From Chitinophagales bacterium (GTDB lineage Bacteria; Bacteroidota; Bacteroidia; Chitinophagales; LD1): a stretch of 64,000 nt of DNA. Each line of letters begins with the position of its first letter. Position 1 is the stretch's first letter. The stretch is from assembly GCA_035299425.1 (NCBI GenBank), contig DATGWP010000024.1, forward strand, positions 1,120-65,119, read 5' to 3'. A model generated the notes under the pieces. The model ran no database searches. It had not been told where the DNA came from and saw only the letters and a program-made list of their open reading frames with translations. The position numbers and the translations under genes were made by a program. Positions 7,767 through 51,168 of this stretch are shown here, piece after piece.

Positions 7767-8405
7767 CTATTTATTAGGCTGCGGTGTTAAGCGCAGGTAC
7801 GGCTTTACCCGCGTATGGCCTTTAGGGAATTTAGCCGGTATATCTTCATCCTTTACTGCCGGTGCAATTACCACATCTTCTCCATCTTTCCAATTAGCAG
7901 GTGTAGCTACCGAGTAGTTAGCCGTTAGCTGCAGGCTATCAATTACGCGCAGCAATTCATGAAAATTTCTACCGGTTGATGCCGGGTAAGTGATTATGAG
8001 TTTCACTTTCTTGTCAGGCCCTATAATAAACACCGACCTAACAGTAAATGTCTCGTTAGAGTTAGGGTGTATCATATCATACAGGTCGGCAACCTTGCGC
8101 TCAGGGTCGGCTATGATAGGAAAGTTAAGCACGGTGTTTTGTGTTTCGTTTATATCCTTTACCCACTCCTTATGCTTATCCAATTCATCTACACTTACGG
8201 CAATTATCTTAGCGTTGCGCTTATCAAACTCAGCCTTTAGTTTTGATGCCGTTCCAAGTTCGGTAGTACATACCGGTGTAAAATCGGCAGGGTGAGAGAA
8301 AAGAACACCCCAGCCATTGCCAAGCCATTCGTAAAAGTTAATAGTTCCATCTGTAGTTTCTGCAGTAAAATCGGGGGCGATGTCTCCAAGTCGTAAAGTA
8401 GCCAT
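7767..8405 (-). CDS. 1-Cys peroxiredoxin (Prx6-type)
   Basis: 212 aa. N-terminus LGDIAPDFTAETTDG..., peroxidatic motif FTPVCTTE. Length and C-terminal extension are typical of the 1-Cys Prx subfamily. Starts 37 nt after the cysH stop. Confidence 0.9.
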   Translation of the reverse strand: MATLRLGDIAPDFTAETTDGTINFYEWLGNGWGVLFSHPADFTPVCTTELGTASKLKAEFDKRNAKIIAVSVDELDKHKEWVKDINETQNTVLNFPIIADPERKVADLYDMIHPNSNETFTVRSVFIIGPDKKVKLIITYPASTGRNFHELLRVIDSLQLTANYSVATPANWKDGEDVVIAPAVKDEDIPAKFPKGHTRVKPYLRLTPQPNK

Positions 8406-8442: not shown

Positions 8443-9183
8443 TTAAATAGTCCAGTTGCCGGGTTGCGAGGCCTCGTTTGTATGTATGCCGCATTCCTTC
8501 TCGGTGTTGCCCTCCCACCACCAACGGCCAGAACGTTCGTTATCGCCGGTTCTTACCGCCCGTGTGCAGGGTGCGCATCCTATGCTCAAAAAGCCTTTGT
8601 CTGATAGTTCATTGTATGGAATACTCTCGCTTCGTATCATATCCTTTACTTCCTCTGCAGTCCAGTAAAAAAGAGGATAAACTTTTATCAATCCCCGCTT
8701 CTCATCCCACTCTACCTGACTCTTCTCTGCCCGGTTAGACGACTGCGTAGCACGCACACCCGATAGCCATATTTTCTGTCCTTGCAAAGCGCGGTTCAGT
8801 GGCTCCAACTTGCGCAGGTAGCAGCACTCCTTACGGTCATCTACCGAATTGTAAAAACTATTGGGCCCTTTTTGCTGTAGCATGTTTTGAAGGCGCTCGG
8901 TTTGCGGGTAATAGGTTTCTATGTTTACGCCATACTTCTCATTGGTAGCTTTCCATACATTATAAGTCTCCTGGAACTGGCGGCCGGTATCGATGGTAAA
9001 TACCTTAACCGGAATTTTGTTTTTAAAAATGAAATGAGATATAACCTGCCCCTCTAAGCCAAAGGCTGTAGAGTAACACACAGCCGCAGGAAACTGCTCA
9101 GCAAGCCAGCGCAGCCCATCGGCTACGGTCATGCTTTGCATGGCCTGGTTAATTTCTTCTACCCGTTTTTTTAACTCACTCAT
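8443..9183 (-). CDS. cysH: Assimilatory (P)APS reductase, thioredoxin-dependent (CysH), Fe-S-type cysteine pattern
   Basis: 246 aa. PAPS-reductase fold motifs and C-terminal KECGIH. The cysteine pairs KECCYLRK and GCAPCT are typical of the [4Fe-4S] APS-reductase subgroup. Confidence 0.9.
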   Translation of the reverse strand: MSELKKRVEEINQAMQSMTVADGLRWLAEQFPAAVCYSTAFGLEGQVISHFIFKNKIPVKVFTIDTGRQFQETYNVWKATNEKYGVNIETYYPQTERLQNMLQQKGPNSFYNSVDDRKECCYLRKLEPLNRALQGQKIWLSGVRATQSSNRAEKSQVEWDEKRGLIKVYPLFYWTAEEVKDMIRSESIPYNELSDKGFLSIGCAPCTRAVRTGDNERSGRWWWEGNTEKECGIHTNEASQPGNWTI

Positions 9184-9256: not shown

Positions 9257-9343
9257 TTATGCAAAAGCCTCTCCTGTCGCTATTTTCATAGCGCAACACA
9301 TAGTGCAGCAACAAGAGAATTTTATTTGGCTTTGGTTAAACAT
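9257..9343 (-). CDS. Candidate cysteine-rich leader peptide (28 aa) of cysH: MFNQSQIKFSCCCTMCCAMKIATGEAFA
   Basis: Hand-translated and below the ORF-track size cutoff. ATG at 9343..9341, TAA at 9259..9257. There are 5 Cys codons within 7 codons (9313-9293). It sits between a promoter-like motif and the leader terminator. Confidence 0.6.
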   Translation of the reverse strand: MFNQSQIKFSCCCTMCCAMKIATGEAFA

Positions 9344-9358
9344 TAATTTGCTTTGTAT

Positions 9359-9370
9359 TGCAAGTATAAA
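9359..9370 (-). promoter_or_regulatory. Shared 12-nt motif TTTATACTTGCA (copy 1), 15 nt upstream of the cysH leader ORF; contains a near -7 box TATACTTG
   Basis: Identical 12-mer to 9998-10009 (+). Each copy immediately precedes one of the two Cys-rich mini-ORFs. Confidence 0.35.
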
Positions 9371-9380
9371 CTAATAAATA

Positions 9381-9992
9381 GTGAATAACCAAAACATTCC
9401 TTCTAAAAATTTTCTGTTCCCTGTTTTTCTGAGGCTTGAACAGATGCGTGTATTATTAGTAGGGGCCGGCCCCGTGGGGCTTGAAAAAGCCACCGCCATA
9501 CTTAGCAATTGCCCTAACATACAACTACACATAATAGCGGAAGTAGTAAGCCCTGAAGTAAGGGCGCTGCCGGGCAATTTCAGCGGTGTAACCATTACCG
9601 AGCGAAGGTTTAACGATGATGATTTAATTGGCATACAGGTGCTTTTTCTGGCTATAAACAATAAGGAATTGAGCGGTGTTATATATACAAAGGCCCATCA
9701 GCTAAACATACTGGTAAATGTGGCCGACACACCCGATTTTTGCGATTTCTACATGTCGTCAATAGTGCAAAAGGGGCAGCTTAAACTGGCTATCTCTACC
9801 AATGGCCAATCGCCCACTATGGCCAAACGCCTGAAAGAAGTATTGAACGATGCCCTGCCTGACGAACTGGACGACCTGATAGCCAACTTAAACCAGGTGC
9901 GTAACGGCCTGAAAGGAGATTTTGCGGATAAGGTAAAGCAGCTAAACGAGCTGACCAGCTCCCTCAAAATAAAAGAGGGTGGCAATAAATAA
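9381..9992 (+). CDS. sirC: Precorrin-2 dehydrogenase / sirohydrochlorin ferrochelatase (siroheme synthase N-terminal-domain type, SirC/Met8-like)
   Basis: 203 aa with a GTG start. LFPVFLRLEQMRVLLVGAGPVGLEKA is the typical Rossmann N-terminus of CysG-N/SirC. Context is with cobA and cysJI. Confidence 0.8.
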   Translation: MNNQNIPSKNFLFPVFLRLEQMRVLLVGAGPVGLEKATAILSNCPNIQLHIIAEVVSPEVRALPGNFSGVTITERRFNDDDLIGIQVLFLAINNKELSGVIYTKAHQLNILVNVADTPDFCDFYMSSIVQKGQLKLAISTNGQSPTMAKRLKEVLNDALPDELDDLIANLNQVRNGLKGDFADKVKQLNELTSSLKIKEGGNK

Positions 9993-9997
9993 AGTTT

Positions 9998-10009
9998 TTT
10001 ATACTTGCA
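9998..10009 (+). promoter_or_regulatory. Shared 12-nt motif TTTATACTTGCA (copy 2), 7 nt upstream of the second Cys-rich mini-ORF
   Basis: 12/12 identity with the minus-strand copy at 9370..9359. Confidence 0.35.
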
Positions 10010-10016
10010 GTGTTCA

Positions 10017-10088
10017 ATGAAAAATACCACTCATATCCTTTTTTCTATGCACAACATTTGTTGTTGCGTGGCTTGCTGTTGTTGTTAA
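10017..10088 (+). CDS. Candidate cysteine-rich leader peptide (23 aa) preceding cobA-cysJ-cysI: MKNTTHILFSMHNICCCVACCCC
   Basis: Hand-translated. ATG at 10017, TAA at 10086-10088. 7 of the last 9 codons are Cys. It lies in the 198-bp gap between sirC and cobA. The Cys codons form the 5' arm of a hairpin (10072-10081 with 10091-10101). Confidence 0.5.
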   Translation: MKNTTHILFSMHNICCCVACCCC

Positions 10089-10190
10089 TTCAACAGGCAA
10101 GTCTGAGTATTCCATAAAAAAATATTGTTCGGATTTGTTTGCACTAAGCAGAAAGTGGGGTGATGTTATAGTATTATTAAACCGGTAAAA

Positions 10191-10973
10191 ATGAGCAAGA
10201 CAAAAGGTAAAGTTTTCCTGGTAGGCGCCGGCCCCGGCGACCCGGGACTATTCACCCTAAAAGGTGCGGCTGTATTAGCTACTGCCAATGTAGTGCTGCA
10301 CGACCGGCTGGTTAGCCCCGAAATACTAAAACATGCACCGACTACCGCTGAGATACTACTGACCGGCAAACAAGGCTTTGCAAAATCTACTGCCCAAACC
10401 TATATTGATGAGTTATTGGTAAAGTATGCACTGCAAGGCAAAACAGTGGTAAGGCTTAAAGGTGGTGATGTATCCTTCTTCTCCAATATACTCAACGAAC
10501 TGGAAGCACTGGCCGCAAACGAAATAGAGTTTGAAATTATACCTGGCGTTACTTCTGCATCGGGCTGTGCAGCCTACACAGGCATACCGCTTACGGCAAG
10601 AGGATATAGCGATGAGGTTCATTTCCTTTCGCTATACAATGTAGAAGAGGATACTACCAAGCTGGATAGAATAGCTACCATGCAAGGCACTATTGTATTG
10701 TATATGTCAAGCAACAACCTGGCAGAAACCACGCAGCAACTAAAGCATATTGGAATGCCCGATAGAAAGCTGGTGGTGATAGAGCAAGGCACTACGCCCT
10801 TTCAGCAACAGTATTTTACATCGGTGCATAAGGCCGCTGTAGATTTGGCAGGTAAGAAGATAAATTCTCCGGCACTGGTAATTATTGGCGAGGTGGTAAG
10901 CCTGTCCGAAAAATTTAATTGGTATAAAGGCAGCCACAACGGGCACTATTTTAAAGAACTAACTAAGGGATAA
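10191..10973 (+). CDS. cobA: Uroporphyrinogen-III C-methyltransferase (SUMT)
   Basis: 260 aa. KVFLVGAGPGDPGLFTLKGAAVLATANVVLHDRLV and GGDVSFF motifs of the tetrapyrrole methylase family. Confidence 0.9.
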   Translation: MSKTKGKVFLVGAGPGDPGLFTLKGAAVLATANVVLHDRLVSPEILKHAPTTAEILLTGKQGFAKSTAQTYIDELLVKYALQGKTVVRLKGGDVSFFSNILNELEALAANEIEFEIIPGVTSASGCAAYTGIPLTARGYSDEVHFLSLYNVEEDTTKLDRIATMQGTIVLYMSSNNLAETTQQLKHIGMPDRKLVVIEQGTTPFQQQYFTSVHKAAVDLAGKKINSPALVIIGEVVSLSEKFNWYKGSHNGHYFKELTKG

Positions 10974-10974
10974 T

Positions 10975-12669
10975 ATGCTAAGCGAAGAGCAACTACAAAA
11001 GCTTACAGATTTTATTGGTCAATACAGCCGCGAAGAACAGCTATGGATAAGCGGCTATATATCCGGCTTAAATAATGGAGCAGGTAGCGCACCTGCAGGT
11101 GCTGCATTGATAACAGCTAAGGTTACTATTGCTTATGGCACCGAAACCGGAAACTCTAAAAAGATAGCATCGCAACTGGCAGCACGCGCCAAACAGCGTA
11201 AGATAAATGCCAAGGTTGTTAGCCTGGACCAATACAAAACCACAGAGCTTGAAAAGGAAGAATACTTCTTTACCATAGTAAGTACACACGGCGATGGCGA
11301 ACCACCTGCTGCAGCCAAAAAGTTTTACGACTATCTGCACAGCAGCGAAAAAAGCCTACCCAAACTAAAATACAGTGTGCTTGCCCTGGGCGATACAGCT
11401 TATCCTCTCTTCTGCAAAACCGGTGAAGATGTGGATGCACAATTTGAAAAACTGGGGGCGCGCAAAATTGCCGACCGACGGAATTGTGATGTGGATTATG
11501 AAGCAGAGGCCAATGCCTGGATAGATGATATACTCACTAATCTATTAGCTGTACCGGGTGGTAACGCTGCCGAAAAAGCTGTAGAAAAGAAAAAGCCATC
11601 GGGCCGTGTTATTTACAAGGGTAAAATAACCACCAACATAAACCTGAACGATACAGGCTCGAATAAGGAAACTTACCATATAGAAATTTTGCCGGATGGC
11701 ACGGCCCACTATGCACCGGGCGATTCGATAGGTATAATACCGGTAAATTTAGAAAGCGAAGTACAGCAGGTTTTAAAAACCCTGGGCACCATAGGCAGCG
11801 AGTTTGTAACGTATAAAGACAAACGATTCTCCTTTTACCACTTACTAAAAACCACGCTGAATATAAAGCAAATGCCGCAGCGTGTGCTAAACAAATACGC
11901 CGCGCTGGAAGAAATTACCACTGAGATAAAAGGGCCTCTTGATTTTGCCGATTTGCTTAATGCCTTTCCTGCTAAAAAGCTGCAAGGCAATTGGCAGGCA
12001 CTAACCGATTTGCTGGAGCCTATTTCGCCGCGCTTGTATTCGGTAGCAAGCAGCAATGCAGCGCACAATGAAGAAGTGCATATTACAGTTGCCCGCTCTA
12101 CGTTCAAGAAAGACGGTGTAAAGCAATATGGCCTGGCCTCTAACTATTTATCGCAGTTGCCGATAGGCACCGATATTCAGTTTTATGTGCAGAAGAACAA
12201 CGCTTTCCACCTGCCTGCGGATGACAAGGATATTATAATGGTAGGTCCGGGTACAGGTATTGCCCCTTTCCGTGCTTTTGTGGCCGAGCGCGATGCGCGG
12301 GGCGCCGAAGGGCGCAATTGGTTGTTTTTTGGTGACCAGCATTTTAAAACGGATTTCCTGTATCAAACCGAATGGCAAAATTACCTGGAAACAGGCGTGC
12401 TAAATCGTATGGATGTAGCATTTTCGCGCGATACCGAAAACAAGGTGTATGTTCAGCATAAGTTGCAGCAACATGCAGCGGCTGTTTTTGAATGGTTGCA
12501 GGGCGGCGCTTATTTTTATGTATGCGGCGCCAAAGAACCAATGAGTGTGGATGTGGAAGAAACACTGCTGCAGATAATTGACCAGCAAAGTGGAAATGGG
12601 CGAGAATATGCCGAAGAGTATATCAACACACTGAAAGAGGAAGGGAGATATTTAAAAGATGTATATTAA
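10975..12669 (+). CDS. cysJ: Sulfite reductase (NADPH) flavoprotein alpha subunit
   Basis: 564 aa. Flavodoxin-like domain (ITIAYGTETGNSKKIA) followed by an FAD/NADPH ferredoxin-reductase domain (RLYSVASS, GPGTGIAPFRAF, C-terminal YLKDVY). ATG lies 1 nt after the cobA stop. Confidence 0.9.
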   Translation: MLSEEQLQKLTDFIGQYSREEQLWISGYISGLNNGAGSAPAGAALITAKVTIAYGTETGNSKKIASQLAARAKQRKINAKVVSLDQYKTTELEKEEYFFTIVSTHGDGEPPAAAKKFYDYLHSSEKSLPKLKYSVLALGDTAYPLFCKTGEDVDAQFEKLGARKIADRRNCDVDYEAEANAWIDDILTNLLAVPGGNAAEKAVEKKKPSGRVIYKGKITTNINLNDTGSNKETYHIEILPDGTAHYAPGDSIGIIPVNLESEVQQVLKTLGTIGSEFVTYKDKRFSFYHLLKTTLNIKQMPQRVLNKYAALEEITTEIKGPLDFADLLNAFPAKKLQGNWQALTDLLEPISPRLYSVASSNAAHNEEVHITVARSTFKKDGVKQYGLASNYLSQLPIGTDIQFYVQKNNAFHLPADDKDIIMVGPGTGIAPFRAFVAERDARGAEGRNWLFFGDQHFKTDFLYQTEWQNYLETGVLNRMDVAFSRDTENKVYVQHKLQQHAAAVFEWLQGGAYFYVCGAKEPMSVDVEETLLQIIDQQSGNGREYAEEYINTLKEEGRYLKDVY

Positions 12670-12693
12670 TCTGCAGTAAGAAACTTTATAGCA

Positions 12694-14367
12694 ATGGCAA
12701 AAAAGGAAAAACTATCGCCGGTAGAAAAATTTAAGGAAGAAAGCGATGCCCTTCGCGGCACGCTGGCACAGAGCCTTAAAAATGAACTAACCGGTGCAGT
12801 GGCAGAGGCTGATAAAAGCCTGATAAAATTCCACGGTATATACGAGCAGGATAACCGCGACCGGCGCGAAGAACGTGCTGCCAAAAAACTGGAGCGCGAT
12901 TACTCGTTCATGATTCGCCTGCGCTTGCCCGGTGGACTAATGACAAGCGAACAATGGATAGCTACTGATGACATAGCTGAGAAATACTCTACCGGTGTTA
13001 TTAAAATAACCACCCGACAAACCTTGCAACTACATGGTATTGTAAAAACGGATATGAAGCCGACCCTGCAGTGGTTCGACAAGTTTAACCTGGATAGTAT
13101 TGCTGCCTGTGGCGATGTAAACCGCAACGTGGTTTGCAGCGCACACCCAATGCAATCGGAAATACATCAGCAGGTGTTTGAGTATGCCGATAAGATAAGT
13201 ACCCTGCTATTGCCTAAAACCCGCGCCTACTACGAGGTATGGTTGGATGACGAAAAAATAATTGATAAGAAAGAAGAGGAAGATCCATTGTATGGTAAGA
13301 CCTATTTACCGCGTAAGTTTAAAATAGCCATTGCCATACCGCCCAACAACGATGTGGATTTATATGCCAACGATATTGGACTGATAGCCGTGATAGAAAA
13401 TAACGTATTGAAAGGCTTCAACATAGCCGTAGGTGGTGGCATGAGCGCCACGCATGGCAACGTATCTACTTATCCGCGCGTGGCTAGTGTAATCGGCTTT
13501 GCCGATACAGAAGAGAAAGTGCTGAAAGCGGTTTATGAAATTGTAACGATACAGCGCGATTATGGTAACCGTAGTGATAGAAAACTGGCCCGGTTAAAAT
13601 ATACGATTGACAACGAAGGCCTTGATTGGTTTGTACAGGAACTGGAAAAACGATGCGGTTTTGCATTAGAGCCTACCAAACAATTTGATTTTAACCAGCG
13701 CATAGATTACTATGGCTGGCAAAAAAACCATGAAGGCAAATGGTATTACACCCTGTTTGTAGAGAATGGCCGTGTGTGCAATGAAAATGGCGTGGACATG
13801 CGCAAAGCACTTTATGAAATAGCGCAGACAGCCAAAGTAACGTTCCGCTTTACCTGCAACCAAAACCTGATAGTAGGCGATATATCGCAAAAAGATAAAG
13901 CTGCTATCAACAAATTGCTGGCTAAGTATAATCTGATTGAACATACCGAAGCCCGCACCGGTATTCGTAAAAACTCGATGGCCTGCGTAGCCATGCCTAC
14001 CTGCCCATTAGCATTGGCAGAGGCTCAGCGATATTTACCCGAGCTAATATCTAAGATTGAACCACTGCTGGCTGAAAACCAACTGACAAACGATGATATT
14101 ATCATTCGTATGACCGGCTGCCCCAATGGCTGTGCCAGGCCTTACCTGGCAGAGATTGCACTGGTAGGTGTTTCGCCGGGAAGGTATAACCTGCACATTG
14201 GTGGCGATGTATCGGGCGCAAGGCTAAACATCATCTTCCGCGAAAACCAGAACGAAGAAGAAATTTTATATGCCCTTGGCGCTTTGTTTAAAACATACGC
14301 GGAGAAAAGAAATAAGAACGAGGCCTTTGGCGATTTTGTGATACGAGAAAAGTATGTTACCGCTTAA
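12694..14367 (+). CDS. cysI: Sulfite reductase hemoprotein beta subunit (siroheme/[4Fe-4S])
   Basis: 557 aa. FHGIYEQDNRDRREERAAKKLE..RLRLPGG..TTRQTLQLHG at the N-terminus. Cluster cysteines in MACVAMPTCPLA and TGCPNGCARP. Confidence 0.92.
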   Translation: MAKKEKLSPVEKFKEESDALRGTLAQSLKNELTGAVAEADKSLIKFHGIYEQDNRDRREERAAKKLERDYSFMIRLRLPGGLMTSEQWIATDDIAEKYSTGVIKITTRQTLQLHGIVKTDMKPTLQWFDKFNLDSIAACGDVNRNVVCSAHPMQSEIHQQVFEYADKISTLLLPKTRAYYEVWLDDEKIIDKKEEEDPLYGKTYLPRKFKIAIAIPPNNDVDLYANDIGLIAVIENNVLKGFNIAVGGGMSATHGNVSTYPRVASVIGFADTEEKVLKAVYEIVTIQRDYGNRSDRKLARLKYTIDNEGLDWFVQELEKRCGFALEPTKQFDFNQRIDYYGWQKNHEGKWYYTLFVENGRVCNENGVDMRKALYEIAQTAKVTFRFTCNQNLIVGDISQKDKAAINKLLAKYNLIEHTEARTGIRKNSMACVAMPTCPLALAEAQRYLPELISKIEPLLAENQLTNDDIIIRMTGCPNGCARPYLAEIALVGVSPGRYNLHIGGDVSGARLNIIFRENQNEEEILYALGALFKTYAEKRNKNEAFGDFVIREKYVTA

Positions 14368-14369
14368 AA

Positions 14370-15575
14370 ATGAATGCACATTACCGGCAAACCATTTCTG
14401 ACAAACTCGATACCCTTAAACAACAGGGTAACTATCGCTATTTTCAGGATGTAAATAAGTCGGCAAAGCATTTCCCCCGTTTTTATTTTGACGATGAAAC
14501 CGGTAAAAAGAAAAGCGCCGTAAATTGGTGCAGTAACGATTACCTGTGCATGAGTATTCACGAAGATGTTATAAGCAAGTTATCGTTTACAGCCCACCAC
14601 AGCGGCGTGGGCAGCAGCGGCACCCGCAATATATCGGGCACTACCGGCTACCATAAGCAACTGGAAGAAAGCGTAGCTAACCTGCATGGCAAAGAAGCCG
14701 CTATTATTTTCAATAGTGCTTTTCTGGCAAACCTTTCAACCCTTGCCACCCTGGGCAGGGCTTTTAGTGATGCGGTATTTATTTCAGACGAGCGCAACCA
14801 TGCATCTATAATTGAAGGCATACGTAGCAGTGGATGTAAAAAAATTGTATTCAAGCATAATGACGTGCAGCACCTGGAAGAGGTGCTTTCTGCTTTGCCA
14901 GCTGAGCAATCAAAAATCATTGTATTTGAAAGTGTTTACTCTATAAGCGGCAACGTGGCACCGGTACAGGAAATAACAGCGTTAGCAAAAAAATACAATG
15001 CCCTAACTTACATAGATGAAGTACATGCCGTGGGCCTTTACGGTGCTACCGGCGCGGGTATTGCAGGACAGCAAGGACTGCAAAATGAAGTGGATATCAT
15101 CAACGGCACATTTGCCAAAGCATTTGGCACATTAGGTGGTTATATTACTACCGATGCCATGATGGCCGATTACCTGCGCAGCTTTGCCAGCGGGTTTATT
15201 TTCACTACTTCTCTCCCACCTGCTATTTGCAGCGCTACTATCAAAAGCATTGAGCTGGTAAAACAGAATAATGAATGGCGGGAACAATTTCACGGGGCGG
15301 TAAAAAAGTTGCGGGCATTATTGGCCGATAAGCAAATCCCATTTCATACCAACGCCTCGCATGTAACGGCGGTTCATATTGGAGATAACATAAGCTGCAA
15401 AGCGATAGCCGATAGGTTATTGAACGAGTTTGGCATTTACCTGCAGCCTATCAATCCGCCCACTGTAAAAGAAGGAGAGGCCTGTTTGCGGATTACGGTT
15501 ACAGCCAAACATACAGAAAGCGATATGCAACAAATGGTAAATGCACTTTCAATTGTGATGCATGAAACAGTTTAA
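14370..15575 (+). CDS. hemA: 5-aminolevulinate synthase (Shemin/C4 pathway; alpha-oxoamine synthase family)
   Basis: 401 aa. NYRYFQDVNKSAKHFP...VNWCSNDYLCM matches the ALAS signature WCSNDYLGM, as opposed to BioF or Kbl. PLP-lysine context GTFAKAFGTLGGYI. Flanked by hemC and hemB. Confidence 0.75.
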   Translation: MNAHYRQTISDKLDTLKQQGNYRYFQDVNKSAKHFPRFYFDDETGKKKSAVNWCSNDYLCMSIHEDVISKLSFTAHHSGVGSSGTRNISGTTGYHKQLEESVANLHGKEAAIIFNSAFLANLSTLATLGRAFSDAVFISDERNHASIIEGIRSSGCKKIVFKHNDVQHLEEVLSALPAEQSKIIVFESVYSISGNVAPVQEITALAKKYNALTYIDEVHAVGLYGATGAGIAGQQGLQNEVDIINGTFAKAFGTLGGYITTDAMMADYLRSFASGFIFTTSLPPAICSATIKSIELVKQNNEWREQFHGAVKKLRALLADKQIPFHTNASHVTAVHIGDNISCKAIADRLLNEFGIYLQPINPPTVKEGEACLRITVTAKHTESDMQQMVNALSIVMHETV

Positions 15576-17070
15576 AATTGTTTGCCGCAGTTCGTCCCTA
15601 TCTGTTATACAGGCAGAAATTGCACGCCAGTACATTTTAAAAGCAGCACCGGGTACAGAAATAGAAATCGTATTAAAAGAAACCAGCGGCGACCTTGACC
15701 AGAGCCGTCCATTATATGAGTTAGAAGGCCGCGACTTCTTCTCTAAGGAAATTGATGAATACCTATTAACCGGTAAAGCTGATTTTGCAGTTCATTCAAT
15801 GAAAGACCTGAGCGGTAACCGCCTGGACGATGAGCGTTTTGTAAATGCTGTGCCTGAACGAAACGACCCGCGTGATGTTATAATTTTCAATCCGGATGTA
15901 TTAGATAAGATTGCATCGGGCAAACCGCTGGTGATAGGAACTTCTTCTTTACGCAGACAATTGCAGGCTATCAACTTTCTTAAAAAGGCATTGCCGGTGG
16001 TCAATGGTTTATCTGCCTCTACAGAAACCAAAACCATACGCGGCAATGTAGATTCGCGTTTGCAGCAATTGCAGGATGGGAAATTTGACGGTATTATACT
16101 TGCTGCAGCCGGCTTAAACCGATTGCTTACTGGTGGCAATAGCAACGTGGCTTCACTTTTAAGCGGCAAACGGAAAATGTTTCTACCCCTTATTGAATGT
16201 GCGCCGGCTCCGGGGCAGGGTGCTTTATTAATAGAGTGCCTGAAAACGAATAGCTCAGCTGCTGAAATTCTTGCCGGTGTAAATAATACAGCCCTATCTG
16301 CGCAATTGGAAACAGAGAGAAATTCAGTAACCCATTTAGGCGGCGGGTGCCACCAGCAGTATGGGTCTGTCTATATCGATACGCCTCATGGTGGGTTTGT
16401 AAATGTAGCAGGCATAGACGAAAAAGGGAATGATGTTAGCGATATGATATTTGATGTATCGTTGGATATCTCTGGTAAAAAAATGTTCTCTGCCGGCGAC
16501 CATATGAAGGATTTTTTCAGTTACGAATTTCAGAGTGCAGACCTATCCGGATTATCCGATGTTGTTTTCGTAGCACATCACCGCGCTGTTACACCTGCAA
16601 TAGCCGAACAGTTAAAGGATAAACAAGTATGGTGCTCGGGTAGCCGCAGTTGGTATGAGTTGGCCAAGCTGGGTATTTGGTGCCAGGGATGTGCCGATGG
16701 GTTAGGCTTTCATTTCTTATCGAATACGTTCGCTCAGCCATTAACTTCTATAAATAAAGAAACGATAACAATTTTAACCAATACCCAGGCTGCCGAAGAA
16801 TGGGCTAAAGAAAATGTGGTTGCTGTCGGCACTTATAAACTGATTCCGAATTTATCGAAAGAACTATGCGATGGCATAAGTGGCGCCGACATTATCTACT
16901 GGACCAATTTTGAGCAATATCTTGCGGCTAAGCATTTGCTAAAGGCCGGCGTTACACATGCTTGTCCATCGGGCAAAACTGTTGAATTGTTTTTAAAGAA
17001 TAACATTGAGCCGGTGGTGTTTCCCGGTATTAAGGCATTTAATATATGGAGAAAGAAAAACACTATATGA
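15562..17070 (+). CDS. hemC: Porphobilinogen deaminase (HemC) with about 190-aa C-terminal extension, possibly a uroporphyrinogen-III synthase (HemD)-like domain
   Basis: 502 aa. HemC motifs (GTSSLRRQLQ, RGNVDSRLQQLQDGKFDGIILAAAGLNRL, GGGCHQQYG) occupy the first ~300 aa. Assigning the remainder to HemD rests only on pathway logic and weak resemblance. Overlaps the ALAS gene by 14 nt. Confidence 0.8.
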   Translation: MKQFKIVCRSSSLSVIQAEIARQYILKAAPGTEIEIVLKETSGDLDQSRPLYELEGRDFFSKEIDEYLLTGKADFAVHSMKDLSGNRLDDERFVNAVPERNDPRDVIIFNPDVLDKIASGKPLVIGTSSLRRQLQAINFLKKALPVVNGLSASTETKTIRGNVDSRLQQLQDGKFDGIILAAAGLNRLLTGGNSNVASLLSGKRKMFLPLIECAPAPGQGALLIECLKTNSSAAEILAGVNNTALSAQLETERNSVTHLGGGCHQQYGSVYIDTPHGGFVNVAGIDEKGNDVSDMIFDVSLDISGKKMFSAGDHMKDFFSYEFQSADLSGLSDVVFVAHHRAVTPAIAEQLKDKQVWCSGSRSWYELAKLGIWCQGCADGLGFHFLSNTFAQPLTSINKETITILTNTQAAEEWAKENVVAVGTYKLIPNLSKELCDGISGADIIYWTNFEQYLAAKHLLKAGVTHACPSGKTVELFLKNNIEPVVFPGIKAFNIWRKKNTI

Positions 17071-18029
17071 ACCAGCGCAGGCTAAGGGCCAATGAACATA
17101 TACGTGAGTTAGCAGCACAGGTATATGTATCACATAAAGATTTTATACAGCCCGTATTTGTTGACGAAGCGTTAACCGAGCGACAATCGGCAAAACACCT
17201 TACCGGTGTGTACACCGAAACCATCGAATCGGTGCTGCAGCAAACTGAAAAGGATATTGCCGGGGGAGTAACTAAATTCCTGCTATTCCCTGTGCCCGCT
17301 CGAAAATCGGAAAATGGATTTTCATTTGATTTTGCTGCGGAGGTTACAAACCGCTTAAAACAAACTTTTGGCAATTCTATCTGGCTGGCAAACGATGTTT
17401 GCCTGTGCAGCTATACCACGCACGGACATTGCGGTATTTTGAGTAAAGAAGGTGACAGGCTTTTAAACGATGATACAGTAATAGTGCTGGCAGATTATGT
17501 TTTGCAATTAGCCCAGGCCGGCAGCAATTGCATAGCCCCCAGCGATATGAGCGACGGCCGCATTAGCGCTATAAGAGAAGCTTTAGATACTAATGGATAC
17601 GACGTCACCGCTATTATGAGTTACGCCGCTAAGTTTAGCTCATCGTTCTACGGACCATTCCGCGATGTATGTAAATCTGCACCGGGCAAAAGCCAGTTGA
17701 ACAACCGGGCTACTTACCAGTTAGATTATAGAAACCATAAAGATGCTTTAGCGACAGCATTACGCGATGCAGAAGAAGGCGCCGATATACTTATGGTAAA
17801 ACCGGCATTGCCTTATCTCGATATTGTTCAAACAATAAATAAGGCGATACCAAAACCGATAGCAGTTTACCACGTAAGTGGGGAATATGCAGCACTGGAG
17901 TTTCTGGCCCAACAACAGTTAGGAGAACGCGCTGCCTTGCACAAAGAAGTATGGACAGCTTTTAAACGAGCCGGCGCATCTGTAATAATATCTTATGCAT
18001 CGAGAGAGGCAAAAGAGTGGCTTCAATAA
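17067..18029 (+). CDS. hemB: Porphobilinogen synthase (delta-aminolevulinate dehydratase), Zn-type
   Basis: MNQRRLRANEHIRELAAQ...FIQPVFVDE. Cys-rich metal site DVCLCSYTTHGHCG. Active-site context SYAAKFSSSFYGPFRD. I place the start at the ATG at 17067, which overlaps the hemC stop as ATGA. The track start at 17046 is an alternative. Confidence 0.9.
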   Translation: MNQRRLRANEHIRELAAQVYVSHKDFIQPVFVDEALTERQSAKHLTGVYTETIESVLQQTEKDIAGGVTKFLLFPVPARKSENGFSFDFAAEVTNRLKQTFGNSIWLANDVCLCSYTTHGHCGILSKEGDRLLNDDTVIVLADYVLQLAQAGSNCIAPSDMSDGRISAIREALDTNGYDVTAIMSYAAKFSSSFYGPFRDVCKSAPGKSQLNNRATYQLDYRNHKDALATALRDAEEGADILMVKPALPYLDIVQTINKAIPKPIAVYHVSGEYAALEFLAQQQLGERAALHKEVWTAFKRAGASVIISYASREAKEWLQ

Positions 18030-49617: not shown

Positions 49618-51168
49618 CTATGCAGTAGCAGCTTCGGGCATATTGGCCAGGCGGTTGGCTCTTAGCTCTTCGGCATAGGTACTTTTGTTAAGGCAGGCCC
49701 GGCACCAGATAAGCAGGTTAAAATCCAGCAGGTAGTTAAAGTCTTCCTGCCTGCGCTCCTGGTTTACCTTTTCAAGCCATGGCAGCATGTCGGCCAGTAG
49801 CTCTTGTTTTTCGGCTTTGGGCAAACCATGCTGTAGTTTGCCCAGGTAAGAAATTACCTGTTTCAGATAATCGGAAACAATATTGTTCTTCTTCATAAAA
49901 TACTGGGTGTTGTTCAGCGCACTTTCCATAAGCGAAAGATTGTTTTGCTCATAATGCACCAGGGCCACCAGCAACCGGGCATAAGCCGGCACGGCCATAA
50001 AGGATACGTTTTCGTGTGCAATGGTTTTTTCTAACCAGTGCAGGCATTTATCGCGGTCGCCGACCACGTAAAACAATATGCTGAGGTAAAAGCAGCTCAT
50101 CATATTATTGTTGCCAATTAGTGGACTGTTGCAAACAAGCAAATTGCTTTCGGCATCCAGCACTTCGGCATACTCCATTTTGCGCAGCTGGCTTATTACG
50201 GTAAGGTACATCAGCTGGTTTTTGCTGTATAGCTTTTGGCGGTAAATTTCCAGTGCGGGGTCTTTAAAACGGGTATTTTGCAATACCTGCAGCTGATGTT
50301 CGGCTTCGTCCATCAGTTCCATATTAAGGGCTATAAGAATGATGTTGCTGATGTTGGCGAGATACTGGGAAGTAACTTTTGTATCCAGCTCTATCTCCTT
50401 AAACATCTCGTTGGTTAACTTAAGATACTTCAGCGCATCGTTATCATCGCTGATGATGCAGGAGTACAGGTAAAGGGCTGTGTAAATCTTGCCCTTGCTA
50501 TGGTACCCCCAGTTAAGGCCTTCGGTGAAATAAGGATGGTTTTTAACGGCATCTGCTTTGGCCTTTATTTCGGGGGTTAATGTGCCTACACCAATTACTT
50601 CATCAAAAATTACCTTCATTTCGTAGGTCATCTCCTCCAGCACCAATCCCTTTTGTATCTGCTCGTTCACCTCTTTTACTTCCACCTTAATAGCCTTGAT
50701 AGCTTCTACCGGGTACTTTGCTATGTGCCTTATCATCAGGCTCATTTTGGTGGCCTTAAACTGGTACTCCATAGAAATATTGTAGCACTGCTGCGCCTTG
50801 CGGATGCTATCGTTAATCAAATCCATAGCCTGATCATCCAGCCCCTTATCCATCAGGTTCTGTACGTCCAGCAGGTTTTCGGTCAGCTTATAGTTGGTAT
50901 TGTTGGCCGTGTGGTAGCTACGCAGGCACCGCATAAGCTGGGCATACAGGTAATTTTTCTGCGCGCTCAGGTTGAATTTCTTATCCCCTTTGGCAAAGTA
51001 CTTCTTAATAGGTTCCTCATTGTACTCATCTGCTTTATCCAGCAGGTCGAACAATTTGAGATAGTCGTTGCCGGTTGATTTTTCGCCATAGCGGGCAGCA
51101 AATTTTTTGAAATATCCCTTTTCGTTCTTATCCAGCGACTTTACAAGTAAAAAAAGATTGTCAATCAT
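49618..51168 (-). CDS. Hypothetical cytoplasmic all-helical (TPR-like) protein, divergent from the giant-protein operon
   Basis: 516 aa. No signal peptide. Helix-repeat-like composition. No motif recognised. Confidence 0.55.
   Translation of the reverse strand: MIDNLFLLVKSLDKNEKGYFKKFAARYGEKSTGNDYLKLFDLLDKADEYNEEPIKKYFAKGDKKFNLSAQKNYLYAQLMRCLRSYHTANNTNYKLTENLLDVQNLMDKGLDDQAMDLINDSIRKAQQCYNISMEYQFKATKMSLMIRHIAKYPVEAIKAIKVEVKEVNEQIQKGLVLEEMTYEMKVIFDEVIGVGTLTPEIKAKADAVKNHPYFTEGLNWGYHSKGKIYTALYLYSCIISDDNDALKYLKLTNEMFKEIELDTKVTSQYLANISNIILIALNMELMDEAEHQLQVLQNTRFKDPALEIYRQKLYSKNQLMYLTVISQLRKMEYAEVLDAESNLLVCNSPLIGNNNMMSCFYLSILFYVVGDRDKCLHWLEKTIAHENVSFMAVPAYARLLVALVHYEQNNLSLMESALNNTQYFMKKNNIVSDYLKQVISYLGKLQHGLPKAEKQELLADMLPWLEKVNQERRQEDFNYLLDFNLLIWCRACLNKSTYAEELRANRLANMPEAATA

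Follow-up and report, generated by a model that had tools for sequence, protein, structure and literature searches.

A predicted glycine-to-siroheme pathway encoded beside the assimilatory sulfite reductase genes of a Chitinophagales bacterium

The cysH operon of Bacillus subtilis carries sumT, sirB and sirC (ylnD/E/F), and in Escherichia coli and Salmonella cysG belongs to nirBDC-cysG, beside the nitrite reductase. The steps from uroporphyrinogen III to siroheme are thus encoded beside the reductase, and the known clusters of this kind are co-expressed. We analyzed a seven-gene cluster of a Chitinophagales bacterium (GenBank assembly GCA_035299425.1) that shares this arrangement. It occupies positions 9381-18029 on the plus strand of the window, by which we mean the whole stretch of 64,000 nucleotides (nt) analyzed, taken from contig DATGWP010000024.1 (C24). 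Unlike the B. subtilis and enteric operons, the cluster encodes the whole predicted route from glycine, with a 5-aminolevulinate synthase (ALAS), HemB, HemC and a HemD-like domain. It also differs from them in that the genome showed no other source of uroporphyrinogen III and that a candidate leader open reading frame (ORF) rich in Cys codons is present. The interpretation that we favor, with a probability of about 75%, is that the region is a self-sufficient module supplying siroheme to the assimilatory sulfite reductase. The principle of placing cofactor genes inside the operon of their client is known; new here are the whole predicted route from glycine, its start with ALAS, a HemD that is cryptic in sequence, and the lack of any other tetrapyrrole pathway.

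According to a 2026 review, ALAS occurs among bacteria in the alpha-proteobacteria only (PMC13564367). In contrast to alpha-proteobacterial and mitochondrial ALAS, the gene in the window belongs to a member of the Bacteroidota, lies inside a sulfur-assimilation operon and is predicted to feed siroheme, not heme or bacteriochlorophyll. A HemC/HemD fusion was reported in Leptospira interrogans (Guegan et al. 2003, as cited in PMC8698207), and the window likewise encodes hydroxymethylbilane synthase and a putative uroporphyrinogen-III synthase (U3S) domain on one polypeptide. In contrast to the Leptospira fusion, the tail in the window is ~200 amino acids (aa) long, too divergent for the Pfam HEM4 model and recognizable by fold only; members of its family, which spans a few hundred clusters at 50% identity, are almost always fused to HemC and, judging by length, sometimes to ALAS too. 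Free-living aerobes that are heme auxotrophs have been described (Kim et al., PNAS 2021, as cited in PMC13564367). Like those aerobes, the present organism has heme proteins but no predicted heme biosynthesis; it differs in keeping a complete early tetrapyrrole pathway, predicted to serve siroheme alone. Full-text literature searches turned up neither a report of ALAS within a cys operon of Bacteroidota nor a paper on heme auxotrophs that keep the early tetrapyrrole pathway for siroheme alone.

The seven ORFs follow one another in the order sirC, cobA, cysJ, cysI, ALAS, hemC plus tail, and hemB:

9381..9992, plus strand: sirC, homologous to the N-terminal domain of CysG; precorrin-2 dehydrogenase, presumably also the sirohydrochlorin ferrochelatase (TIGR01470, 113.3 bits against a cut-off of 62.3; Pfam NAD_binding_7, PF13241, and Sirohm_synth_M, PF14824, both present)
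10017..10088, plus strand: Cys-rich mini-ORF MKNTTHILFSMHNICCCVACCCC in the sirC-cobA spacer, candidate cysteine-sensing leader
10191..10973, plus strand: cobA, uroporphyrinogen-III C-methyltransferase (SUMT; TIGR01469, 243.7 bits against 185)
10975..12669, plus strand: cysJ-type flavoprotein of assimilatory sulfite reductase (Flavodoxin_1, FAD_binding_1, NAD_binding_1)
12694..14367, plus strand: cysI, siroheme and [4Fe-4S] hemoprotein of sulfite reductase (TIGR02041, 772 bits against 756.55; NF010029, 777.7 bits against 457)
14370..15575, plus strand: ALAS, of the Shemin or C4 route (TIGR01821, 500.8 bits against 338.55)
15562..17070, plus strand: whole hemC ORF including the tail, 502 aa (TIGR00212, 188.7 bits against 164, residues 5-268 only)
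15562..16452, plus strand: hydroxymethylbilane synthase portion (HemC) of this fusion (TIGR00212, Foldseek)
16453..17070, plus strand: HemD-like C-terminal domain with the predicted U3S fold, same ORF as HemC (AF2 model, PDB fold matches)
17046..18029, plus strand: hemB, porphobilinogen synthase, start ATG at 17046 or 17067 (NF006762, 344 bits against 297; Pfam ALAD, 345 bits)

This order and these identities had been proposed in a first, sequence-only reading of the stretch, and both were borne out by the ORFs and the curated family models. Direct reading of the junctions gave gaps of 1 nt between cobA and cysJ, 24 nt between cysJ and cysI and 2 nt between cysI and ALAS, and an overlap of 14 nt between ALAS and hemC. 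The hemC and hemB genes share an ATGA overlap with the hemB start at 17067, or overlap by 25 nt with the start at 17046. The four junctions given in the sequence-only reading (all but cysJ/cysI) were therefore correct, the last of them on condition that 17067 is the start. Its description of seven tightly packed genes held for the six from cobA to hemB, but not for sirC, which is separated from cobA by a spacer of 198 nt (9993-10190) containing the mini-ORF.

In the proposed route, ALAS would combine glycine with succinyl-CoA into 5-aminolevulinate (ALA), HemB would convert ALA to porphobilinogen, and the HemC domain of the fusion would convert porphobilinogen to hydroxymethylbilane, which the divergent tail with the HemD fold would cyclize to uroporphyrinogen III. 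CobA would methylate this product to precorrin-2, and SirC, a protein of the CysG-N type, would oxidize precorrin-2 and presumably also insert the iron, yielding siroheme. Siroheme would then be loaded into CysI, the client enzyme, with electrons supplied by CysJ.

The assignment of ALAS was examined against its sister families. The protein scored 339 bits against the bioF model and 304 bits against the Kbl model, under their cut-offs of 426 and 460, and the serine palmitoyltransferase model likewise stayed under its cut-off. Its best five matches in the PDB were all ALAS (including 7x98, 2bwn, human ALAS2 and the yeast enzyme; 303 to 364 bits), whereas the best non-ALAS relatives (KBL, AONS, SPT) reached at most 206 bits. 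The likeness to the alpha-proteobacterial and mitochondrial enzymes (Rhodobacter capsulatus HemA 2BWN, 7X98 and human ALAS2; 343 to 364 bits) extended over the full length, and the pyridoxal phosphate (PLP)-lysine motif GTFAKAFG aligned to GTLAKAFG. In a tree for which BioF/Kbl-like paralogues from this genome served as the outgroup, the protein fell into a clade of cys-linked Bacteroidota ALAS with 100/100 support. An exact-protein look-up returned no record. The possibility raised in the sequence-only reading, that the gene is BioF- or Kbl-like, was rejected by the family scores, the PDB matches and the tree placement; judged from its sequence, the protein is a true ALAS, neither BioF nor Kbl, with predicted catalysis.

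The HemC part of the fusion is likewise canonical by its sequence features: C263 aligns with Cys242 of the E. coli enzyme, which carries the dipyrromethane cofactor, and D82 aligns with D84. Foldseek matched this part to PBGD over ~300 columns, with a TMt of up to 0.78. The cysJ product scored 561 bits against TIGR01931, under the cut-off of 668; its flavodoxin, FAD and NAD domain set is nonetheless complete.

The last ~200-205 residues of the 502-aa protein form the tail. It gave no Pfam match, HEM4 (PF02602) included, even at E <= 1, a profile of 41 tail sequences matched no PDB sequence, U3S included, and the alignment of this profile to the genome's own HEM4 protein with hhalign was insignificant (probability 0.5%). 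The AlphaFold (AF2) models had pLDDT values of 93.6 for the full HemC-tail protein and 93.8 for the tail alone. Because the full-length model was swamped by HemC matches in the fold search, the tail-only model was used. All 12 PDB matches at E <= 1e-4 were U3S, coming from Thermus, Shewanella, Pseudomonas and Helicobacter, and the next match had an E-value of 3e-3. The HemD-like nature of the tail suggested by the sequence-only reading was thus supported by fold but not by the sequence comparisons (Pfam, PDB profile and hhalign). The tail and HemC share one ORF in more than 60 related loci. Searching 1.84 billion representatives (of 50%-identity clusters) with the tail profile yielded 322 proteins at E <= 1e-10, most of them ~500 aa long with the tail at ~300-510, and a few of 800 to 917 aa. 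Among the long ones, P0049 (917 aa), P0122 (812 aa) and P0136 (802 aa) have the tail at the C terminus and are long enough for ALAS-HemC-tail triple fusions. The modeled fold and this distribution suggest that the tail is the cyclase of the pathway. With a U3S fold in the tail, the predicted route from glycine to siroheme is complete, which agrees with the earlier claim of a full pathway.

We then considered which tetrapyrrole pathways the rest of the genome encodes (98% complete, 242 contigs). No GluTR, no UroD, no ferrochelatase (in a family including CpfC) and no siroheme decarboxylase AhbA/B were found in it, and HemL had no match above the cut-off (best 181 bits against 527). Besides cobA, no tetrapyrrole methylase was detected in the genome even at E = 10. 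The hemB, hemC, cobA, sirC and ALAS genes are each present in a single copy. Neither the C5 pathway nor a second hemB/hemC set, both of which the sequence-only reading had proposed to look for, was therefore found elsewhere, and its view of a branch dedicated to one client stands. Cobalamin as the client of the cluster was rejected for lack of further tetrapyrrole methylases, and a siroheme-dependent route to heme was rejected for lack of AhbA/B. Since all other tetrapyrrole branches are absent, the cluster is the only tetrapyrrole pathway and ends at siroheme, so that heme would have to come from outside. The genome has two heme-copper oxidase (COX1) genes, and cysD and cysN for sulfate activation are present on contig C149. 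We infer that the organism is a heme auxotroph that has kept tetrapyrrole synthesis for siroheme alone. Sole copies of the hem genes had been named beforehand as a sign against a dedicated branch; the copies are indeed single, but this does not refute the dedicated branch, as no heme branch exists that they could serve.

Similar clusters were found in other species. Scanning species-representative genomes with ALAS matched at least 127 relatives, and 80 loci were kept and examined. The labels are mostly Chitinophagaceae or Chitinophagales, with a few cases of Kapaibacteria or Ignavibacteria. In most of these 80 loci, hemC (with the tail) and hemB lie directly 3' of ALAS, and at least 61 have a sulfite-reductase gene adjoining ALAS; the genes usually run (prx)-cysH-cysD-cysN-cobA-cysJ-cysI-ALAS-hemC·tail-hemB-sirC. 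The gene-neighborhood survey called for in the sequence-only reading thus came out in favor of the arrangement, and its recurrence in other species argues against chance juxtaposition. The reductase next to ALAS is of the cysJI type in 33 loci, and in 28 loci its place is taken by a divergent 687-aa NIR_SIR protein of the ferredoxin type (e.g., L053:7694-9757, minus strand). The ALAS clades follow the type of reductase, with 6 label changes compared to ~22 with shuffled labels. Whole-genome searches of 76 sampled genomes covered 50 with the ALAS-cys cluster. A strong UroD was present in 4 of these 50 (one more had a weak 64-bit match to the URO-D family), GluTR was present in exactly the same four, and the remaining 46 lacked both. 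Heme-copper oxidase (COX1) was present in all 50 cluster genomes, as in all 76 sampled. Of the 50 genomes carrying the cluster, 46 are accordingly predicted heme auxotrophs.

Some of the related loci showed further variations. The NIR_SIR proteins have a HEPN-like C-terminal region, and a DUF2490 gene lies between hemB and sirC in these loci. SirC is fused to a membrane domain of the TauE/SafE type (sulfite-exporter family) in L010:16625-18172 and L032:19091-20710, giving proteins of 515 to 539 aa. In the same Kapaibacterium locus (L032:10897-11558), genes for an HTH protein and a PemK/MazF toxin lie between ALAS and hemC·tail. A Cyclobacteriaceae metagenome-assembled genome (L039) has the operon cobA-cysJ-cysI-ALAS-sirC without hemC and hemB, and GluTR and UroD are present in the genome. 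Divergent hemC and hemB copies (32 to 37% identical) lie just upstream there, with ALAS alone attached to the cys operon.

One alternative is that the cluster is a general tetrapyrrole trunk that also makes heme via unrecognized late enzymes, its link to cysJI being mere gene order. Apart from the sole copies of hemB, hemC and ALAS and the two heme-copper oxidases, it can draw on another genome of the same order (L097, G042:C11:121000-140000), in which an ALAS 53% identical to that of the window lies beside UroD and a standard hemC and GluTR is lacking. Bacteroidota ALAS can hence feed heme, and the G042 enzyme seems to serve an ordinary heme pathway, as a second context of Bacteroidota ALAS. 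However, UroD, ferrochelatase (CpfC family included) and AhbA/B were all missing from the genome, even with queries from the same genus; 46 of the 50 cluster genomes lack the heme branch as well; and the module lies with cobA and sirC beside a sulfite reductase, which adjoins ALAS in at least 61 of the 80 loci. We consider a general trunk improbable.

To place the cluster within its own lineage, we compared relatives at several distances. An even sample of the order contained true ALAS in only 2 of 121 genomes. In the family, cysI was present in 5 of 30 relatives, always as a solitary gene, so that no synteny exists around cysI. All five cysI-bearing relatives have a GluTR-type trunk, whereas only 1 of 19 relatives without cysI has any trunk; within the family, retention of the trunk therefore essentially follows that of sulfite reductase. 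Three of the five lack UroD and are a C5-fed, siroheme-only version of the pathway. Two genomes of the sister genus (G127 and G139; L100 and L101) have the order GluTR-hemC-hemD-(AAA/DUF4143 gene)-hemB, with cysI present and no UroD; their cobA and sirC were not located. A relative of the same genus (G132) has a classical heme cluster, with cysI standing alone.

The cysI of the window is 74% identical to the solitary cysI of G132. Identity to the copies of the G132 heme cluster is 39% for the hemB of the window and 33% for its hemC; identity to the copies in other ALAS clusters is 49 to 65% for hemB and 36 to 53% for the HemC domain. These sequence identities suggest a joint arrival of ALAS, hemCD and hemB, in one block, beside a native cysI. 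Such an event would be old, because the composition is typical of the genome: by tetranucleotide distance, C24 is 58th among 146 contigs, and of random pieces of 8.65 kb, 43% deviate as much as the cluster or more. Housekeeping genes such as relA/spoT, AdoHcy hydrolase and PorP of the type IX secretion system are also found on C24. Mis-binning and recent transfer were rejected on the basis of the composition, and these genes likewise place the contig in the genome.

Leader-peptide transcription attenuators are known from the trp, his, leu and thr operons. The mini-ORF MKNTTHILFSMHNICCCVACCCC in the sirC-cobA spacer has 7 Cys within its last 9 codons. We scanned the whole genome (4.9 Mb) for ATG-started intergenic ORFs of 10 to 45 codons in which some stretch of 9 codons holds 5 Cys or more. 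Only six were found, four of them directly upstream of sulfur genes, namely cysH-prx, cobA-to-hemB, cysE-cysK (C160) and metY-metX-hom (C165). The features concerned, other than those of the cluster itself, are:

9257..9343 (C24 10376-10462), minus strand: Cys-rich mini-ORF MFNQSQIKFSCCCTMCCAMKIATGEAFA ahead of cysH, from the genome-wide scan
8443..9183, minus strand: cysH, PAPS/APS reductase, divergent from the cluster (Pfam PAPS_reduct, 161 bits)
7767-8405, minus strand: 1-Cys peroxiredoxin, after cysH (AhpC-TSA, 116 bits)
G000:C160:31089-31142, plus strand: mini-ORF MLVQTIACCCCCSPAGE before cysE-cysK, with a clear GC hairpin and T-run 3' of it
G000:C165:5674-5751, plus strand: mixed Met/Cys mini-ORF MFHNAHIISSVQHAMCCMCCCCCMC before metY-metX-hom

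The MLVQTIACCCCCSPAGE element looks like a textbook Cys attenuator for cysE-cysK. By sequence reading, it is followed by genes for a serine acetyltransferase-like protein (271 aa) and a cysteine synthase-like protein (318 aa), and MFHNAHIISSVQHAMCCMCCCCCMC is followed by genes for O-acetylhomoserine sulfhydrylase-like, homoserine O-acetyltransferase-like and homoserine dehydrogenase-like proteins. In the window, a terminator-like hairpin at 9237-9204 lies by the MFNQSQIKFSCCCTMCCAMKIATGEAFA-cysH leader on the minus strand. Among the related loci, a Cys-rich mini-ORF precedes cysH in 8 of 34 and cobA in 3 of 44, and a Met/Cys-rich mini-ORF, MMDMMCCCCCMCFTMMCTMMCTMCN, lies ahead of cobA in the Kapaibacterium locus L032. 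The 12-mer TTTATACTTGCA stands before both Cys mini-ORFs of the window, on opposite strands (regions 9359-9381 and 9998-10009). The GTG start of sirC at 9381 is 11 nt from the minus-strand copy of this promoter-like 12-mer, which implies an overlap of the sirC promoter with the divergent cysH leader. Searching the whole window with Rfam at gathering thresholds yielded no riboswitch or leader family, and nothing convincing was found among plus-strand terminators from sirC to hemB. A sigma-70 promoter scan returned 20 sites against 19.7 expected, with a model that fits Bacteroidota promoters poorly.

The candidate leaders resemble the trp, his, leu and thr attenuators in that a short ORF rich in codons for the sensed residue lies upstream, and this recurs at four sulfur-related operons. 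They differ in that the residue putatively sensed is cysteine, that no terminator/anti-terminator pair could be defined at cobA, and that tetrapyrrole genes are among the putative targets. The regulon-like pattern makes cysteine-sensing leaders, and hence cysteine-responsive control, plausible. Under this model, cobA through hemB would form one transcript, and cysteine scarcity would stall ribosomes in the Cys-rich leader ORF and thereby switch this transcript on; apo-CysI and its cofactor would thus be made together.

Several points weigh against reading the cluster as a self-sufficient siroheme module under cysteine control. The chelatase activity of SirC is assumed; among the conserved clusters examined, none showed a separate chelatase gene, and no genome-wide search for SirB, CbiX or CbiK was made. 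The tail resembles U3S by fold alone, with TM-scores of 0.35 to 0.63 and identities of 10 to 16%; TM-scores in this range are expected for a hinged two-domain enzyme. Moreover, a canonical, standalone HEM4-family gene (305 aa; C69:35027-35644, minus strand, corresponding to L005:1441-2358), which adjoins a DUF4271 gene, could perform the HemD step. For control by the leader, no plus-strand terminator match was found within the cobA leader (9993-10190), the fold of this leader is unexceptional (z = -1.6), and sirC, being upstream of it, may be controlled differently. The cysteine-responsive control proposed in the sequence-only reading consequently gains from the regulon-like mini-ORFs but lacks terminator logic at cobA and does not extend to the position of sirC. 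Lastly, in G132 the heme genes form a single locus of ~10 kb (hemH / GluTR-hemC-hemD-hemE-hemF-hemB-hemL), so their joint absence counts as one event rather than five, and one gap in an assembly of 242 contigs could in principle conceal such a locus.

As for the HEM4 gene, all genomes of the family, even those without any tetrapyrrole genes, carry a paralogue of 320 to 350 aa next to DUF4271; this paralogue is therefore not linked to the pathway. Genomes with a C5 trunk carry a second HemD of ~240 aa beside GluTR, and 6 of the 50 cluster genomes have no HEM4 match at all. The role of this paralogue is probably not, or not only, uroporphyrinogen-III synthesis.

The assembly gives rise to a second alternative, in which a classical heme cluster is hidden in an unassembled gap and the ALAS module is a second trunk, dedicated to siroheme. 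Besides the fragmentation of the 98% complete assembly and the single G132 locus, the four cluster genomes that also carry GluTR and UroD are in its favor. However, the G132 heme-cluster proteins as queries detected no GluTR, HemD, UroD, HemF or ferrochelatase in the genome. The proteins flanking the G132 locus have orthologues there (76 to 93% identical), and the three genes concerned share a continuous contig of 28 kb without adjacent heme genes. Furthermore, GluTR and UroD are both missing from 5 of 7 other members of the genus, including G128 and G124, which are assembled in only 6 and 10 contigs. A hidden heme cluster is therefore also improbable, and if present, it would strengthen rather than overturn the dedicated-branch reading. 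Finally, it is most improbable that the hem genes are merely neighbors of cysJI, with promoters of their own, no sulfur regulation and a spacing without functional meaning: the promoter scan, uninformative for Bacteroidota, and the cobA leader without detected terminator logic would allow this, but the gaps of 1-2 nt and overlaps of 4-14 nt at the junctions, the cysI-ALAS-hemCD-hemB order kept across families, the ALAS clades tracking the reductase type (6 against 22 label changes) and the regulon-like behavior of the Cys mini-ORFs all speak against it.

Beyond the dedicated siroheme module itself, we incline slightly towards a wider proposal. A portable Shemin-type "siroheme kit" (ALAS, HemC-cryptic HemD, HemB, CobA and SirC) may keep sulfate assimilation running in aerobic, heme-auxotrophic Bacteroidota, with tetrapyrrole synthesis placed under cysteine, through a Cys-codon leader, and not under heme, iron or oxygen; ALAS would then be widespread and vertically maintained outside the alpha-proteobacteria. 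The matches in at least 127 Bacteroidota-type species genomes, 80 of them examined, contradict the statement of the 2026 review on the distribution of the enzyme. The presence of hemB, hemC and hemD-like genes does not equal heme prototrophy, since here they are predicted to serve siroheme only, with heme being imported. This bears on metabolic reconstruction and on the design of culture media for Chitinophagales-type bacteria of soil, water and wastewater. In addition, the tail points to a domain family with the predicted U3S fold that sequence models have overlooked; as they miss the HemD-like domain, annotation pipelines would call the pathway incomplete. The cluster also offers a testable case of a cofactor pathway co-regulated with a single client enzyme, probably through cysteine-sensing leader peptides.

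Elsewhere in the window, a 516-aa ORF at 49618-51168 on the minus strand matched no Pfam family at E <= 1e-5. Immediately downstream of the cluster, an ArsR-family gene converges on hemB, and the gap between the two is 2 nt.

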